Made by a program: the position numbers and the translations under genes
Source of the DNA: a virus
Strand: one strand, 5' to 3'
DNA: 38,826 nucleotides
UHGV virus genome: UHGV-0114133
Notes under the pieces: model-generated
Database searches by the model: none
What the model was told of the DNA's origin: nothing
What the model saw: only the letters and a program-made list of their open reading frames with translations
Shown here: piece after piece, positions 2,842-22,359 of the stretch
Layout of the letters: every line of letters begins with the position of its first letter
Numbering within the stretch: position 1 is the stretch's first letter

Positions 2842-3897
2842 CTATTTGCGAGCCTTTGCCTTGCGCAGCTCTTCGAGAATCGCCAGTTCTTCCTTGCTCA
2901 ACATGACCATTTCCCCGTCTTTTTCTTCAGGAGCAACATCGATAATGTCCTCCGGATCATCACCTGGCAAGATATCTTCTGGCTCTTCAGGCGTGGCCAT
3001 AGATGGCGGCAGTGCCGAACGTAACTTCGGCCGTCTATAGTGGATGACGAAGTAGACCGAGCTGCCGCGTTTCACTTCAGTGTAATCGAGATAGCCGATC
3101 TCTCGCAGCTGCTCCATCGCCTTCCTGACTGTCGCATTCTGGGTAATGGTGCGGCTGGTTAAGTTAAGTCTGGCGCGTAAGCGAGCCAATGAGATTGGCG
3201 CCGGGTCTGGTGGCAAACTTTCAATGAAGGTGTAGAGCGCCTGCGCGGATTCCTTTCTGGAGAGTTCGTTGATGGCCCGAAGTTGCAAAAGCACCTTTTT
3301 GTCGAACTGGTAAAGTTCGAAAATCTTAGGATCGGCCTTCAGTTCGACCGTGTCATTCTTGGTACTGTACTTTGCCGTCTGCACAAGGTGCGTAACGTAA
3401 TACTCTTCAGAGCCTTTGCTGCGGAATGAGATGGTGTTTGTGGCGATACGACTTAGAGAGCTGTCCAGGCGCTTACGTAACTTCGCGGACGATCTGGCTG
3501 TTGGTATGCCACAAAGTCTGACGAACTCGACGAACGGCAACGTGACGGTGTCACCAACAACCTTGTGCTTGGCGAACGCGTGGATGATGCCCACCCATGT
3601 TTTGAAATCGTTATCCATATCAAGACGAAGACCAGCAATCCTTATATCCTCGTACCCTTCGGCTTTGGCCAGAGACAGCTGTTTGAGTTCAGCGGAGGCG
3701 TCCATAGAGACCATTTGCCCCTTTCTACCCCTGGATGTCGATTTCAGCGTCGGAACGAAGAGACCAAGACGCATCAGAGCAACAGGCTGAACTGTGTTGT
3801 TGGTGTTAGGAACTAACGTAACAACTTCGCCGGTCTTTTTGTCTGTTTCGGAAAATGCTTCGCTTATCGCAATGTTTTTATTGTCGTTTACGCTCAT
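2842..3897 (-). CDS. repA: Plasmid replication initiator RepA (iteron-binding, P1/RepFIB-like)
   Basis: 351-aa ORF flanked on both sides by iteron arrays; acidic C-terminus; organisation typical of P1-type replicons. Confidence 0.8.
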
Positions 3898-6999: not shown

Positions 7000-8912
7000 A
7001 GTTTTTAAAGCTCCAGGTTGAAAATTTTATGGCAATCGCCAGCGCAGAAGTCGAGTTAGACCAGCGTGGACTGGTGCTGATCCAGGGTGTGAACAGTGGC
7101 GATACGTCTGCTGCCAGCAATGGCGCCGGGAAATCCACTCTGATGAATAGCTTAATGTGGTGTCTGTATGGTGAGACTGCACATGGCGTCAAAGGCGATG
7201 ACGTGCTGTCGACGGGCCATGAGAAGAACTGCCGTGTGATGGTTACAGTTGAAGACGAAGGTAAGAAATACGCGATCATTCGCCATCGTAAACACAAAGA
7301 GTTCAAGAACCGACTAATCGTCCGTGGTGAAGACGGTGATATGACCAAAGGCAAGGACACGCTGACACAGACGTTCGTAGAACGTCTGATTGGGGCATCG
7401 AAAGAGGTGTTCATGGCGTCCATCTACGCCAGTCAGGAAGCGATGCCAGATCTGCCCGGTATGTCCGACAAGAGCCTCAAAACCATCGTTGAAGAAGCTG
7501 CTGGCGTCGACCGATTGACGCGAGCCTATGCCATTGCCCGCGAGCGTGCTAATGCAGCTGCCGCACGTATGGACGTTACCAAATCCAAAATGGACGCCTG
7601 TCTCACGCTTATCGAGACTGCACAGTCAGAGATTGAGGCGGCCAAAGCGTCCTCTGAAAGCTGGGAGCGCGATCGCGGCGAGCGTCTGGACAAGGCCCGA
7701 GCCGATTTGGCTGGCGCGGAGGTAACACTGTCTGAAGTCGAGATGGAAATTCGCTCGCTGCCGGAACAGATCCGTGATACGGAAAACGCGATTGCTGGCG
7801 AACGCAGCAAGCTGGCCTCCAAAGAAGAGCATGACGCCAAACTGCTGAAGGTGCGCAGTGCTATTACTGAGATCCGCTCAAGCATCCGTACTTCAGAAGC
7901 GGCACAGAACGAGTCGATAAACCGTGCTCGCTCGTTTAAAACCAAAGCTGAAGAGGTCAGCACAAAGATCGGGGCACCCTGCATTACGTGCGGAAAGCCC
8001 TACTGCGAAGAAGATTTATCCACGGTGAAGGAGAGCTTCATTGAACAAGCGCGCAATGAGATCGGCCTTGCGCAGACATCAGCAGCGGCAGTGGCTCAAC
8101 ACAAGGCTCGTCTTGAGAAAGCGCTCGGTATCGAGTCTGCACTGGTCGCAGCCACACCCGACGTCTCAGAAATCATCTCCACAATAGAACGCCTGACCAA
8201 TGAGCTAAGTGCGCTGCGTCATCGCGAACGTGAAGTTGTGGCCGTCGAAGCGATGGTTGCGCGGGCGCGTACTGAAGTGAATCGCATCATGGCGGAAGCA
8301 AACCCATTTCTGGCCGTTATTAAGCGCCATGAAGACAACCTGGCTGCCAATAAATCTAATCATGCAGTACTTAAAAATGAGTTAAAGAGCATTCAGGAAC
8401 AGGCTCTGTTGCTGGAGAAGGCCCGCCAGGTTTACTCCCCAGCAGGCGTGCGTTCACACATCCTGACCTCCGTTACGCCTTTCCTGAACATCAGGACTGC
8501 GGAGTATCTCAACACGCTGTCGGACGGCAATATCGTTGCCGAATGGTCGACAATGGAGACAACGAAGAAAGGTGAGTATCGCGACAAATTCAATATCAGC
8601 GTAATCAAAACAGGCTCCAGCAAATCCTTCCAGACTTTGTCTGGTGGTGAGAAGCGTAAGGTACGTATTGCGTGCTCTCTGGCTTTGCAGGATCTGGTTG
8701 CCAGTCGCGCCAGTAAGAATATCGAGCTATTTATCGGTGATGAAATTGACGACGCGCTCGACACAGCCGGTCTGGAGCGTCTCATGGGGATTCTGGAAGC
8801 CAAAGCGCGTGAACGTGGCACAGTGATGATCATCTCCCACAAAGAGATGAAATCGTGGTTCCGGGAAATTATCACTGTCGAAGTTAAAGAGGGGCGCAGC
8901 TATGTCGTTTAA
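6996..8912 (+). CDS. SbcC/Rad50-like SMC-type ATPase
   Basis: Walker A GAGKST, central coiled coil with CxxC zinc hook (CITCGKPYC), signature LSGGEKRKV, Walker B FIGDEIDDALD; RBS before ATG at 6996; track extension from 6750 rejected. Confidence 0.85.
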   Translation: MKFLKLQVENFMAIASAEVELDQRGLVLIQGVNSGDTSAASNGAGKSTLMNSLMWCLYGETAHGVKGDDVLSTGHEKNCRVMVTVEDEGKKYAIIRHRKHKEFKNRLIVRGEDGDMTKGKDTLTQTFVERLIGASKEVFMASIYASQEAMPDLPGMSDKSLKTIVEEAAGVDRLTRAYAIARERANAAAARMDVTKSKMDACLTLIETAQSEIEAAKASSESWERDRGERLDKARADLAGAEVTLSEVEMEIRSLPEQIRDTENAIAGERSKLASKEEHDAKLLKVRSAITEIRSSIRTSEAAQNESINRARSFKTKAEEVSTKIGAPCITCGKPYCEEDLSTVKESFIEQARNEIGLAQTSAAAVAQHKARLEKALGIESALVAATPDVSEIISTIERLTNELSALRHREREVVAVEAMVARARTEVNRIMAEANPFLAVIKRHEDNLAANKSNHAVLKNELKSIQEQALLLEKARQVYSPAGVRSHILTSVTPFLNIRTAEYLNTLSDGNIVAEWSTMETTKKGEYRDKFNISVIKTGSSKSFQTLSGGEKRKVRIACSLALQDLVASRASKNIELFIGDEIDDALDTAGLERLMGILEAKARERGTVMIISHKEMKSWFREIITVEVKEGRSYVV

Positions 8913-9648
8913 CTTGAGCCGCACGCAGTTTTTGCAGATGTTTGCCGTGATGCAGTCTATAAAGCTGATAAACAACCATACAGCAAAAGTAACTCCGCCT
9001 GCACTTTTGTGGAAAAACGTAAACATCAGCGACGACCAGTTCTCGGTATTAACCAATCTATTGTCATCGACTCCTTTGATGCCGAGCTTGGCTAATCTGC
9101 CGTCAGGAAGCACTGCGCCGATCCTTATTAATCCATTTACGGAAGGTGGATATCTCCCACATTCTGGGCCGGGGTTCGTTGTGATTCCTGAAACCGGAAC
9201 GCTGAACATCCAAGAAAATGCACTCTTCAATGCAATGGAGACGCACATCAGCACCGCATTCACTAATCTGATTCGACACGCTAACGCACGCGCGGATCAC
9301 GTTGCAATGCCGGGTGCTGCCTTCGCCAGCTTCTCTGTTGACTATGACCGGCACGCGCCAATTTCAGAACGGGCGAAACTTTGTTTTTACGAGGAAGGAG
9401 GCGAAGTAGCGATTATTGAAGTTCTCCTCCCCCACGTATTCAACGCGAATGAAAAGGCTGCGTGCCAACTTATTGACATCATGCGGCATTTCATCGGCCA
9501 GAGCATGATTGATGCAGATATTGCTGCAGGCGTTCTGAGCAACGATGGCATTCACGTAGTTAACGACATTCCGAAGCCGCCAACTCGAGAGCCGGAAAAG
9601 ACACTTGAACAGAAACTAATGGAATGCCCAACCTGGGCTACGTGGTAA
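8902..9648 (+). CDS. hypothetical protein (248 aa), translationally coupled to SbcC-like gene
   Basis: ATG overlaps SbcC stop; no recognised motif. Confidence 0.6.
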   Translation: MSFNLSRTQFLQMFAVMQSIKLINNHTAKVTPPALLWKNVNISDDQFSVLTNLLSSTPLMPSLANLPSGSTAPILINPFTEGGYLPHSGPGFVVIPETGTLNIQENALFNAMETHISTAFTNLIRHANARADHVAMPGAAFASFSVDYDRHAPISERAKLCFYEEGGEVAIIEVLLPHVFNANEKAACQLIDIMRHFIGQSMIDADIAAGVLSNDGIHVVNDIPKPPTREPEKTLEQKLMECPTWATW

Positions 9649-19162: not shown

Positions 19163-19393
19163 ATGGTATACCCGACGAACGTCGTAGCGCTCGTTGAGAG
19201 CGATTTTCTGGCCACAGTGCGCGACATGATGAAAGATCGCGATAAGGCTTTCAGTCTCTACGAATGGTCGCTCAAATGTCTTCATTCAGGCGAGCACAAA
19301 GAGCTGGTGGAGCAGCTGTTAGGGGAACTCATCAATGAGGTGTTTGCCCTGAACGTCCAGCTTCATGGGCGAGAAATTAATCAATCAATATAA
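19163..19393 (+). CDS. hypothetical protein (76 aa)
   Basis: AAGGA RBS before ATG. Confidence 0.5.
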   Translation: MVYPTNVVALVESDFLATVRDMMKDRDKAFSLYEWSLKCLHSGEHKELVEQLLGELINEVFALNVQLHGREINQSI

Positions 19394-19410
19394 TAGGTAA
19401 GTACTTACCA
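19393..19410. promoter_or_regulatory. Palindromic operator-like site (near-perfect)
   Basis: ataggtaagtacttacca at the stop of the 19163 gene. Confidence 0.5.
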
Positions 19411-19987
19411 TTCAAAACGCCACTAACCAGTGATACAATCTATCCGCTTCCGGATACTTTCGGCAGCTCGACCTGATGGGTGGGGGATAGCGTCACTGGC
19501 GTCAGGTTTAAAAAAGCTCACTACCAGCGTAGAACCGGCACCGTTTAGGGGTTGGGGAAGGGGGAACCAAAGTGGGCAGAGAGAAGGGTCACTTTATGAT
19601 TGTCGAGTCTGGAGTGTTTCGAGAGGTTGAATCCAGTACTCCCCTTCATAAAGTGTGGGAAGATCTCGGTTCTGGGGTGCTGTCATCCATAACTTCCCAA
19701 GCCTAAGCTGGCAGTAGACTTAGGTCATAACTTTTCAGGTTATGAAACGACCAGGTTGGTGAGGAAATTTTGTACTCACCTCCCTGGGAGAGTATTACCT
19801 GAAAAGACAACCTCTCACTTCGTTCGAGGTGAACTTCACTCACTTCGTTCGTTCAGTTCAGGTTTTATTAAAACCTGTTCTGGGAAGTAATTTTTCTTTT
19901 CTAAAAAATTTTTAATATTTACACGCACGCGTGCGCACACGCGCGAGGGAAAAAAAAATCGTCGCGGCGCACGATTCTGGAGCCAAA

Positions 19988-20596
19988 ATGACGACCAAGA
20001 ACCCAGTCCGGCAACGCACTGGCTGCCGCACGAAGTCTAAAGCCAGATGCCAAACCCACCAGCATTCCCGTACCAATTTCAACACACCCGTAGTCGAGTT
20101 CAATCCCCAGCTCAAAACCGTAAAAGTATTCAGTGATGGCTCTTGCCTCAAAAATCCGGGCGGGCCGGGCGGTTACGGCATCGTTCTCCAGTATCGAGGC
20201 GAAGAGCGCGAGCTTTCTGAGGGCTTCCACAGCACGACCAACAATCGGATGGAGATGATGGGCGCCCTGATTGCGCTGGAGCGTCTGAAGTACCCCTGCA
20301 ACGTGATCCTGCATTCCGACAGCCAGTATCTTAAAAACGGCATGACGCTCTGGATGAAAGGCTGGAAGCGTAACGGATGGATCACGTCTGAGAAGAAGCC
20401 AGTCAAAAACGTGGATCTCTGGAAACGTCTCGACGCGGCCGCCAGTCGTCATAATGTCCGCTGGAAGTGGGTTAAAGGCCATGCAGGTCATCGCGAGAAC
20501 GAAATGTGTGACCGTCTGGCGAAGATCGCCGCCTATTCCGCAGCTGATATGCCTCACAAGCATGACATTGGGTTTTTGTCACAAAAAGATAAGTAA
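19988..20596 (+). CDS. rnhA: Ribonuclease HI with about 38-aa basic N-terminal extension
   Basis: [67 protein letters not shown] (close to E. coli RNase HI as recalled from memory). Confidence 0.85.
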
Positions 20597-21543: not shown

Positions 21544-22359
21544 ATGTTTGAGGTAACTGCACACGCTCCCAGCACCACAGGCTTACATGCCAGGCCATCG
21601 ATGACCAGTCAGGAGATCGCCGAAATGGTCGGCAGTCGCCATGACAGCGTAAAGCGTACCATTGAAAGACTCGCTAAATCCGGCGTTATTACTTTTCCAC
21701 CAATGGTGGAAAAGCCCACTGCCGGGCGTCCGGCTACGTTTTACTTATTCGAAGCCGAACAGGGTAAGCGCGACAGTATCGTTGTCGTGGCACAGCTTTC
21801 TCCTGAATTTACCGCACGCCTTGTTGATCGGTGGAGAGAGCTTGAGTCCATGTTTGCCGACCGCGGAACGCCTGCTATTCCACGTACCTATAAAGAGGCT
21901 CTGGTTCATTTGTTACACCAGGTCGAGGAAAACGAGCGTCTGGAGAAAGAGAACGAAGCGTTAGGCGTTGCACTATCTAACGCAAAACCAAAAGCCATTC
22001 TCATGGACACCATTTGCGGCACTGCTGATGAGCTTTATGGGCTGAATGAAGCTGGTCGCATTCTCGGCACGTCCGGGGCTGTTCTGGGTTCGCTGATGGA
22101 CTCGCTGGGTGATGTGTATGTTAAGCGCAAATACACCACAGTTAGTCGCCAGTTTCTCAAGATCTTCATTGACCGTGGATATGGCAAAAACGTTGTCATC
22201 GGAAACGGTCGCAACCAGGCCAAGTTCACCTTTAAAGGGCTTTGCTTTGCAGCTGTGAAACTAATTGCAGCCGGGTTGATTGCCTCCAGCGCCATTGAAT
22301 ATGAGCCGTGTCGTGAGCATGTCGAACGTGCAATGAAGGAATCCAAACGTCTTCATTGA
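21544..22359 (+). CDS. Phage regulatory protein, Rha/antirepressor-like
   Basis: N-terminal helix-turn-helix-like SQEIAEMVGSRHDSVKRTIERL resembling the Rha family; C-terminal domain unassigned. Confidence 0.5.
   Translation: MFEVTAHAPSTTGLHARPSMTSQEIAEMVGSRHDSVKRTIERLAKSGVITFPPMVEKPTAGRPATFYLFEAEQGKRDSIVVVAQLSPEFTARLVDRWRELESMFADRGTPAIPRTYKEALVHLLHQVEENERLEKENEALGVALSNAKPKAILMDTICGTADELYGLNEAGRILGTSGAVLGSLMDSLGDVYVKRKYTTVSRQFLKIFIDRGYGKNVVIGNGRNQAKFTFKGLCFAAVKLIAAGLIASSAIEYEPCREHVERAMKESKRLH

Follow-up and report, generated by a model that had tools for sequence, protein, structure and literature searches.

Bacterial structured RNAs of more than 400 nt are rare, and those with a known function are usually ribozymes or the cores of important ribonucleoproteins (RNPs). 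The ROOL, GOLLD, OLE, and raiA classes are large structured noncoding RNAs (ncRNAs) of phages and plasmids, with many helices, conserved unpaired motifs, and unknown function. The secondary-immunity RNAs c4 of P1 and P7, CI of P4, and CA of N15 are ~70-100 nt long, are processed from an operon leader, and pair with nearby targets. Here, the ~590-bp gap upstream of the RNase HI gene rnhA was investigated in the virus genome UHGV-0114133, of which the whole analyzed stretch of 38,826 nt is referred to as the window. A previous model-made reading of the letters (the sequence-only reading) had marked the gap as a candidate structured RNA or cis site. Our results make it probable that the sequence from 19446 to ~19890 on the + strand is an independently transcribed gene for a multihelix ncRNA of ~445 nt, acting in trans as a stable RNA. 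The structured RNA proposed earlier is borne out by covariation, by the lack of a conserved open reading frame (ORF), and by a transcript in a relative, but the RNA is not tied to rnhA. Moreover, the element is not the whole 590 bp; the discrete RNA occupies ~445 nt and has a predicted promoter of its own.

The RNA resembles ROOL, GOLLD, OLE, and raiA in its length of hundreds of nucleotides, its many helices, its strongly conserved unpaired motifs, its location on mobile elements, its occurrence as a discrete RNA, and the lack of an obvious antisense target. It differs from these classes in that no Rfam sequence or structure match was obtained and in that it is found in phage-plasmids of Enterobacteriaceae, in a fixed slot after a 76-aa gene (phrog_5343), where two unrelated types occur. 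With the c4, CI, and CA RNAs it shares formation in the lysogenic state and an operon with an antirepressor-type gene (Rha/Ant), and its variants could define heteroimmunity. In contrast to those RNAs, it is ~445 nt long and shows no complementarity above chance in the 38.8 kb. ColE1 RNA II is likewise a structured transcript of ~0.5 kb with a constitutive promoter, a G-rich segment, a downstream A-rich tract, and a connection to RNase H. However, an RNA I antisense unit and evidence for an origin are lacking at the present locus, a 3' U-tract or terminator is present, and the RNA is also found where no functional RNase H is adjacent. The autoregulatory RNase E leader (rne 5' untranslated region [UTR], ~360 nt) is also a long conserved multihairpin RNA directly upstream of a ribonuclease gene. 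Here, unlike in rne, the downstream gene is dispensable and can be exchanged, the abundance of the RNA exceeds that of the message downstream 14-40 times, and no match to the Rfam rne5 family was obtained.

A scan against Rfam, which had been proposed together with the sequence-only reading, matched no family. With Rfam 15 at gathering thresholds, no match was found in the whole window, and relaxed thresholds (E ≤ 10) for 19300-20100 returned only a chance match to mir-375 with E = 2.5. Therefore, the RNA does not belong to a known family. ARAGORN detected no tRNA or transfer-messenger RNA in the window, and no prior description of this RNA was found in the literature searched. It constitutes a new RNA family, although the kind of entity is already known, as the RNA behaves like the large orphan structured RNAs.

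The RNA core is better conserved than the neighboring protein genes. In the 1.6 kb around the locus, the window is 96% identical with Salmonella phage SSU5 and 80-87% identical with SSU5-like phage-plasmids from Klebsiella and Escherichia coli; judged by these identities, the window is an SSU5-like phage-plasmid. Positions 19467-19982 showed 88-97% identity in elements with ~80% identity over the 1.6 kb. A column profile of 62 distinct sequences placed the conserved block at 19468-19888, with up to 100% invariant columns. Over 19640-19850, 83-100% of the columns were invariant compared with 40-70% in the flanking coding sequences (CDSs). The core is 98.6% identical to that of the relative Cyrano, 91.5% to Klebsiella pJN2-26, and 89.3% to the locus L151, compared with 76-80% for the flanking CDSs, and the identity of promoter and spacer across the same comparisons is 29-64%. 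For Cyrano, the individual values are 76 and 80% for the flanking genes, 51% for the promoter plus 5' hairpin, and 43% for the 3' spacer.

This conserved region is not coding. The earlier statement that no credible ORF lies in the gap held: each ORF of ≥25 aa carries a frameshift or lacks its start or stop in no fewer than 28 of 90 distinct relatives. The ORF of 36-44 aa at 19572/19596-19706, annotated in Cyrano as CYRAN_81, is frameshifted in 28 of these 90, including whole clades, and the other ORFs performed worse.

Base pairing was assessed with close and distant homologues of the RNA, designated type 1. A search with the 76-aa protein family led to diverged RNA homologues in L375, L376, L379, and L380 (nhmmer, E ~1e-48), L378 (1e-15), and L377 (1e-3), and type-1 homologues across lineages were recovered by nhmmer with E from 1e-166 to 1e-3. 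The consensus fold of 27 representatives contains 119 pairs, with 99.6% of the cells paired, and the full-length model has 9 double-change pairs compared with 1-3 in slid controls. For helix P2, a plain MAFFT alignment including the distant homologues gave 100% paired cells, double changes in 7 of 11 pairs, and a covariation score of 0.65 versus 0.25 in shuffles. In the 140-nt domain P4a-c (alignment A6, fitted to the model), double changes were found in 26 of 38 pairs, compared with 10.5 in shuffled and 3-9 in slid controls, with 96.9 versus 84.9% of the cells paired. The covariance model (CM) of this domain, R1, scored 60-164 bits in all 21 type-1 loci. An all-against-all scan for column covariation was swamped by clade structure, and tests were made in the helix context instead. 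One apparently divergent homologue, L382 (Logan SRR8137545), proved to be a C-to-T-converted E. coli-clade sequence from an assembly of bisulfite reads. Because the conversion mimics divergence, it was excluded from the covariation work.

The strand was assigned from the same material. Among 90 distinct sequences, 99.1% of the cells were canonical on the + strand versus 89.2% when read on the − strand. The + strand is favored because G-U pairs are common, and the promoter also faces in the + direction. Both strands fold ~4 standard deviations better than shuffles, as expected for a sequence with hairpins, and the + strand is more stable by 29 kcal/mol. Altogether, sequence and structure homologues of the type-1 RNA were found with helices P1, P2, and P4a-c in the slot after phrog_5343.

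The structured RNA (~19446-19890; this and all following helices on the + strand) starts with the 5'-terminal hairpin P1 (19446-19467), in which the structure is conserved and the sequence is free to vary. Ten stem variants from at least six lineages each fold, and the hairpin always ends at the same base, before CUCGAyC. P2 (19470-19508) is a long, covarying hairpin with a conserved apical GGGUGG...CUGGC. The G-rich tract GGGGUUGGGGAAGGGGG and a conserved ACCAGCG are located in the P3 domain (19516-19578). The closing helix of this domain (19516-22/19571-77) covaries between UA, UG, and CG pairs, and the motifs ACCAGCG and AAC(C/A)AAAG are present in distant homologues. P4a (19590-19655) is a branched hairpin with a 10-bp outer stem, the inner stems GAGU/ACUC and CUGGA/UCCAG, and a conserved UUGUCGA; double changes occur in 13 of 19 pairs (helices 1 and 2 of CM R1 and alignment A6). 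P4b (19656-19699) is formed by GGGAAG/CUUCCC with the conserved internal loops AUCUCGGUUCU and AUAA, and shows double changes in 6 of 12 pairs (A6 helices 3 and 4) with 94-100% of the cells paired. In P4c (19701-19725), a 7-bp hairpin with the conserved loop CUGGCAGUAGA, all 7 pairs have double changes and 100% of the cells are paired (A6 helix 5). P4d (19732-19805) is a long imperfect hairpin of ~74 nt, which was detected by nhmmer as a match of the sequence to its own reverse complement and is part of the consensus fold. It is invariant in the close group; in the distant homologue L375 its stems are rewritten with the pairing kept, as judged by eye.

In the 3' domain (19808-19888), two copies of CUCACUUCGUUCG (19814-19826 and 19839-19851) flank the small hairpin GAGG-UGAA-CUUC (19826-19837), followed by a terminal hairpin (19853-19883) and GGGAAGUAA. 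No variation was seen at 19808-19851 among 62 sequences, and the apex of the terminal hairpin covaries from UA to GC. L375 has GAGG-GAAA-CCUC in the place of the small hairpin. A long-range closing helix pairs 19581-91 with 19808-14. For P3, P4d, this closing helix, and the 3' domain, the support comes mainly from invariant pairs.

A promoter scan predicted a sigma-70 promoter on the + strand at 19411-19439, composed of TTCAAA, a 17-nt spacer, and TACAAT with a TG extension. The elements TGnTAnnAT and TTnAnn are at fixed positions in 44 of 44 variants, with only ~50% identity in the surrounding bases. By this comparison the predicted promoter is phylogenetically conserved, and as an extended −10 promoter it would place the transcription start at ~19446. 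Promoter-like sites on the − strand were not found inside 19446-19900; the single site on the − strand (19415-19387) faces in the direction opposite to the RNA. At the other end, a U-rich tail, the likely 3' end or termination site, passes into an AT-rich spacer of variable length (19889-19920, + strand). Tail and spacer have 29-78% identity with indels, and a run of U5-U7 follows the last helix in every lineage.

The check for a transcript, which had been suggested earlier, was answered by published RNA-seq of Cyrano in E. coli LF82. The "hypothetical protein" CYRAN_81 (78657-78791) lies inside the RNA and corresponds to 19572-19706 of the window. It is among the genes transcribed 12-fold above local background in lysogens (Misson et al., PMC9928086, Table 1). 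Expressed as log2(fpkm+5), where fpkm is fragments per kilobase per million, CYRAN_81 reached 6.8-10.35 in 10 of 10 samples with a peak in macrophages at 6 h, and the levels of the upstream 76-aa gene and the downstream RNase H were 3.1-5.8 and 2.6-5.0, respectively (PMC9928086, S1 Table). From these values, the RNA segment is 12-40 times above both neighboring genes in lysogens, with a 14-40-fold drop by rnhA. Because CYRAN_81 is far above both neighbors, the RNA is neither upstream read-through nor mainly a leader into rnhA. A discrete, abundant transcript is present in this close relative.

The best surviving competitor, which we nevertheless regard as improbable, is a cis-acting leader or attenuator, where the RNA would be the long structured 5' UTR of rnhA and the downstream genes. 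In the form of an attenuator switch, two copies of CACUUCGUUCG would compete for GAGGUGA ahead of the hairpin and U-tract, leading either to termination or to read-through. The invariant 3' domain indeed permits mutually exclusive pairings, with a hairpin and a U-rich tail before rnhA. The genes are all co-oriented, no convincing separate promoter was seen in the variable spacer between the RNA and rnhA, and rnhA follows the RNA in >95% of the elements. However, the competing pairing is not kept in L375, where only the small GAGG-GAAA-CCUC hairpin is found. The RNA of 445 nt with at least 10 helices is far above the size of known attenuators, and at steady state it exceeds rnhA by a factor of 14-40 in each of the 10 samples.

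Elements with a different downstream gene also speak against a leader and show that the RNA does not depend on rnhA. With 94-99% identity, it has been retained in elements that have unrelated genes in place of rnhA or a disrupted rnhA. In L233, ~1.7 kb (930-2600), including a lipoprotein-like − strand ORF of 182 aa, take the place of rnhA; in L234, the RNA is directly followed by an IS3-family element (7884-9004); and in L156 and L160, rnhA is split by a 1.9-kb insertion (~1046-2992). Among the diverged homologues, a Tad2-like gene (PF11195, anti-Thoeris family) follows the RNA in L376 (3439-3744), L379 (2598-2912), and L380 (2432-2743), and a 200-aa protein of unknown function is encoded after it in L375 (3329-3931). 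A leader or riboswitch would thus have no constant downstream gene, as RNase HI, the Tad2-like protein, the 200-aa protein, and other cargo are all found in this place. Because the downstream gene varies in this way, the DNA just 3' of the RNA is a point of cargo exchange. Furthermore, one lineage has a catalytically degenerate homologue of RNase H. In L293 (pCAV1015-111, 3296-3859), this homologue has N for D10, S for D70, and a changed GHAGH motif, and on account of these lost catalytic residues the protein is probably inactive; the RNase H of the L294 lineage keeps the carboxylates.

An origin of replication with an RNA pre-primer, comparable with ColE1 RNA II, T4 oriF, or the mitochondrial light-strand promoter and conserved sequence block II (LSP/CSBII), is less probable still. 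In such a scheme, the folded transcript would form a persistent R-loop, involving the G-rich tract, in the downstream AT-rich/(CA/CG)n region and would be cut at the purine/A9 tract by the adjacent RNase HI for priming. The layout is ColE1-like: a promoter precedes ~500 nt of structured RNA that includes a G-rich segment, and after an AT-rich stretch and GAGGGAAAAAAAAA the RNase HI gene follows immediately. The noncoding sequence is better conserved than the genes, the RNA types would fit incompatibility groups, and expression in the plasmid state fits as well. However, the type-2 RNA has a canonical terminator, the U-run follows the last helix in all lineages, and the RNA-seq signal drops before rnhA. 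The putative DNA unwinding element and the purine tract are the least conserved parts, with 29-78% identity. The RNA persists without an adjacent rnhA or beside a catalytically dead one, although host RNase HI could substitute. No antisense promoter of the RNA I kind was found, the cumulative GC skew has no inflection at 19.9 kb, and PLSDB types the plasmids by separate replicon clusters (rep_cluster_488, 763, and 711), taken as protein-based replicons.

It is very unlikely that the locus is an element at the DNA level only, either a cluster of protein-binding sites or a recombination anchor, where identity would result from recombinational spread and the hairpins would be incidental. The identity of the core is discordant with the divergence of the flanks: it is 98.6% for Cyrano (L002) versus 91.5% for pJN2-26 (L004), both with ~78% flank identity, which suggests that the RNA module has been exchanged between lineages by recombination. 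An operator-like palindrome at the 5' edge and variable cargo downstream also fit a DNA element. However, compensatory changes keep the pairing in deeply diverged homologues, the G-U asymmetry favors one strand, and a DNA-level element does not account for a conserved predicted promoter and a discrete abundant transcript. The encoding of one or more small proteins, such as that of CYRAN_81, has next to no likelihood, as the CDS annotation in Cyrano and a weak AAGG resembling a ribosome binding site (RBS) upstream of ATG 19596 are outweighed by the frameshifts, by 1-2-nt indels inside the ORF, and by substitutions that follow base pairing.

In other elements, this slot is occupied by a second RNA. 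The synteny is preserved in ~30 Klebsiella plasmids and several viral contigs, but with a different structured RNA of ~430 nt (type 2; L293 2766-3198, also L294, L367-L373, L383, and L384, with a distant relative in L381). Between the type-1 and type-2 groups, identity is 71% for Dam, 51% for the small protein, and 39% for RNase H. The type-2 gap measures 570-650 bp and contains a conserved core of ~430 nt with covarying hairpins. Its layout is like that of type 1, with an operator-like palindrome, an extended −10 promoter, and a covarying GC-rich 5' hairpin, and the RNA ends in a canonical intrinsic terminator. Homology between the two types was not detected by nhmmer, Smith-Waterman, blastn with 7-nt words, or CM R1 with filters off, and the type-2 loci gave no match in Rfam. 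The type-2 RNA is probably a second new RNA family. High conservation within a type together with no similarity between types is a pattern typical of specificity determinants.

The favored reading of an independently transcribed, trans-acting RNA would involve the following steps. The RNA would be transcribed from its own extended −10 sigma-70 promoter beside the operator-like palindrome, and its 5'-terminal hairpin would probably protect the transcript. It would fold into P2, P3, and the multibranch P4a-d, followed by the 3' domain, and would end at the hairpin and U-rich tail ahead of rnhA. It would accumulate while the phage-plasmid is carried as a plasmid prophage, and may then act in trans as a stable folded RNA. 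The likeliest mode would be binding of a presumed type-specific partner encoded by the element, for which the adjacent 76-aa protein is the first candidate. As a more tentative extension, which we consider possible rather than likely, the slot after phrog_5343 could harbor an idiomorphic set of ~450-nt RNAs of at least two types, each forming an RNP with a type-specific partner, for which the neighboring, co-evolving 76-aa protein with three predicted helices is the most plausible choice, and setting a lineage-specific property of the carrier state.

Several points weigh against the favored reading. The RNA-seq data come from the relative Cyrano and not from the element in the window, and their strand specificity is unconfirmed. 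Because the operator is perfect in the window and degenerate in Cyrano, lysogenic expression may differ here. The type-1 3' hairpin is AU-rich and branched, with the U-tract 2-7 nt from the stem; because this is not a canonical terminator, type-1 termination is deduced from the RNA-seq drop, and the exact 5' and 3' ends of the RNA are likewise inferred. The fitting of alignment A6 to its model favors pairing in P4a-c; the P2 alignment was not fitted to any structure and is free of this bias. Most helices are invariant in the close group and are therefore uninformative either way, and the near-identical core between lineages may partly reflect recombinational spread instead of selection on every base. 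Complementarity of ≥11 nt to other transcripts of the window was at chance level, and seeds of 7-8 nt were indistinguishable from chance.

The symmetric elements that had been listed for the gap were present when read from the sequence, with one coordinate excepted. The operator-like palindrome GGTAAGTACTTACC lies at 19396-19409, the G-rich tract at ~19545-19578, the palindrome GGTTTTATTAAAACC at 19861-19875, and the palindrome CGCACGCGTGCG at 19924-19935, within a 27-nt alternating purine-pyrimidine run (19921-19947). The direct repeat TCACTTCGTTCG is real, but its second copy is at 19840-19851, 3 nt away from the reported 19843-19854; the 13-nt version CTCACTTCGTTCG is found at 19814-19826 and 19839-19851. 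Most of the elements stressed in that reading sit at the edge of the important element. The palindromes at 19861-19875 and 19924-19935 are in or beyond the variable 3' periphery of the conserved block, and the GC palindrome and the AT tract fall outside the RNA core. Conservation in relatives, which had been proposed as a check, was found for the RNA hairpins, which are kept with compensatory changes, but not for CGCACGCGTGCG, which is not palindromic in L150 and L167. CGCACGCGTGCG is part of a (CA/CG)n alternating tract, followed by GAGGG and an A9 run (19921-19957), outside the RNA core. In relatives the alternation is kept, and the length, the palindrome, and the A-run (5-9 A) are variable. 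In L233, which lacks rnhA, the tract is still found beside the RNA module. From its sequence alone it appears prone to form Z-DNA.

The operator-like palindrome GGTAAGTACTTACC abuts the −35 hexamer of the RNA promoter and belongs to a motif of ~20 bp with a consensus near ATAGGTAAGTACTTACCTAT. The window contains 10 copies (at 1164, 5550, 10981, 12106, 12256, 18338, 19396, 20592, 25459, and 32279) versus ~1 expected, and none of 100 shuffles reached 10. All 10 copies are intergenic, ahead of + strand genes. The motif is probably an operator or promoter element of a regulon that extends over the entire phage-plasmid. In the E. coli and Klebsiella clades, the copy at the RNA promoter has a degenerate right half-site.

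The gene order common to annotated relatives is Dam methylase, a hypothetical gene of ~76 aa, a gap of ~580 bp, and RNase HI. According to Pfam, the locus is inside a DNA-metabolism block with SbcCD-like proteins, ThyA, DHFR, a kinase, a DnaQ-like exonuclease, Dam, RNase H, and Rha/Ant, of which the antirepressor-type Rha/Ant gene lies at 21544-22359. The 76-aa gene (19163-19393, + strand, from the ORF list; match to phrog_5343 with 2.5e-49) is directly 5' of the RNA slot in all loci examined, for both RNA types. Three helices were predicted in the AlphaFold model of its product (predicted local distance difference test, 82). The model had no informative structural neighbor, the best Foldseek hit against the Protein Data Bank having E = 4.9, and Pfam and PADLOC returned nothing for the protein. 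On the other side of the RNA, the rnhA leader with a GC hairpin and the RBS GGAG (19979-19982), together with the RNase HI gene starting at ATG 19988, spans 19958-20596 (+ strand; Pfam RNase_H, 6.9e-46). The RNase HI has 202 aa, a basic N-terminal extension, and the catalytic residues. No other stretch of the locus evolves as fast as this K/R-rich extension of ~45 aa (19988-20120): 7-23% of its columns are invariant, and clades share 53-65% nucleotide identity in it.

Other candidate systems were considered and rejected. For a type III toxin-antitoxin system of the ToxI kind, only two 13-nt copies 25 nt apart are present, and the RNA follows the small protein gene. PADLOC found nothing among the neighboring proteins. 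For a sponge of the CsrB/RsmZ type, ~9 GGA in 455 nt were counted by eye, about as many as the base composition predicts. Mimicry of the 16S anti-Shine-Dalgarno sequence (UCACCUCC at 19777-19784 and GAGGUGA at 19826-19832) was dropped because it is not conserved in L375.

To describe the distribution, the gap alone was used as a query and matched 687 PLSDB plasmids and 12 phages. Among 5,426 complete E. coli genomes, 232 carry the RNA; with few exceptions it lies on a plasmid of ~110 kb, and nothing is annotated under it. Its hosts are Klebsiella, Escherichia, Enterobacter, Salmonella, Citrobacter, and Cronobacter. When viral and metagenome contigs were scanned with DNA patterns, the same SSU5-like contigs only and no remote relatives were recovered, and a contig scan with the RNase H protein as query gave chromosomal rnhA genes only. 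A second copy of the RNA in the window was not found by nhmmer. Two database records contain annotation errors at this locus. In the SSU5 record (L001 4732-5496, SSU5_090), RNase H is annotated with 254 aa and a start inside the 3' domain of the RNA, and in the Cyrano record (L002 2473-2607, CYRAN_81), a 44-aa protein is annotated inside the RNA.

On ~700 sequenced enterobacterial plasmids, from a very common family of ~110-kb phage-plasmids, an RNA has been left unannotated or has been misread as a 44-aa protein or an over-extended RNase H. Few sequences of these elements are as well conserved, and lysogens express the RNA strongly, also inside macrophages. Phage-plasmids of this family spread antibiotic-resistance genes, and their hosts are genetically tractable, so that direct functional tests are feasible. 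The existence of an unrelated second RNA at the same position is suggestive of a specificity determinant. If the RNAs indeed form RNPs with type-specific partners, the property that they set could be heteroimmunity or the lysis-lysogeny decision, incompatibility, or protection against host defense, and they would correspond, as large RNAs, to the small immunity RNAs c4 and CI.

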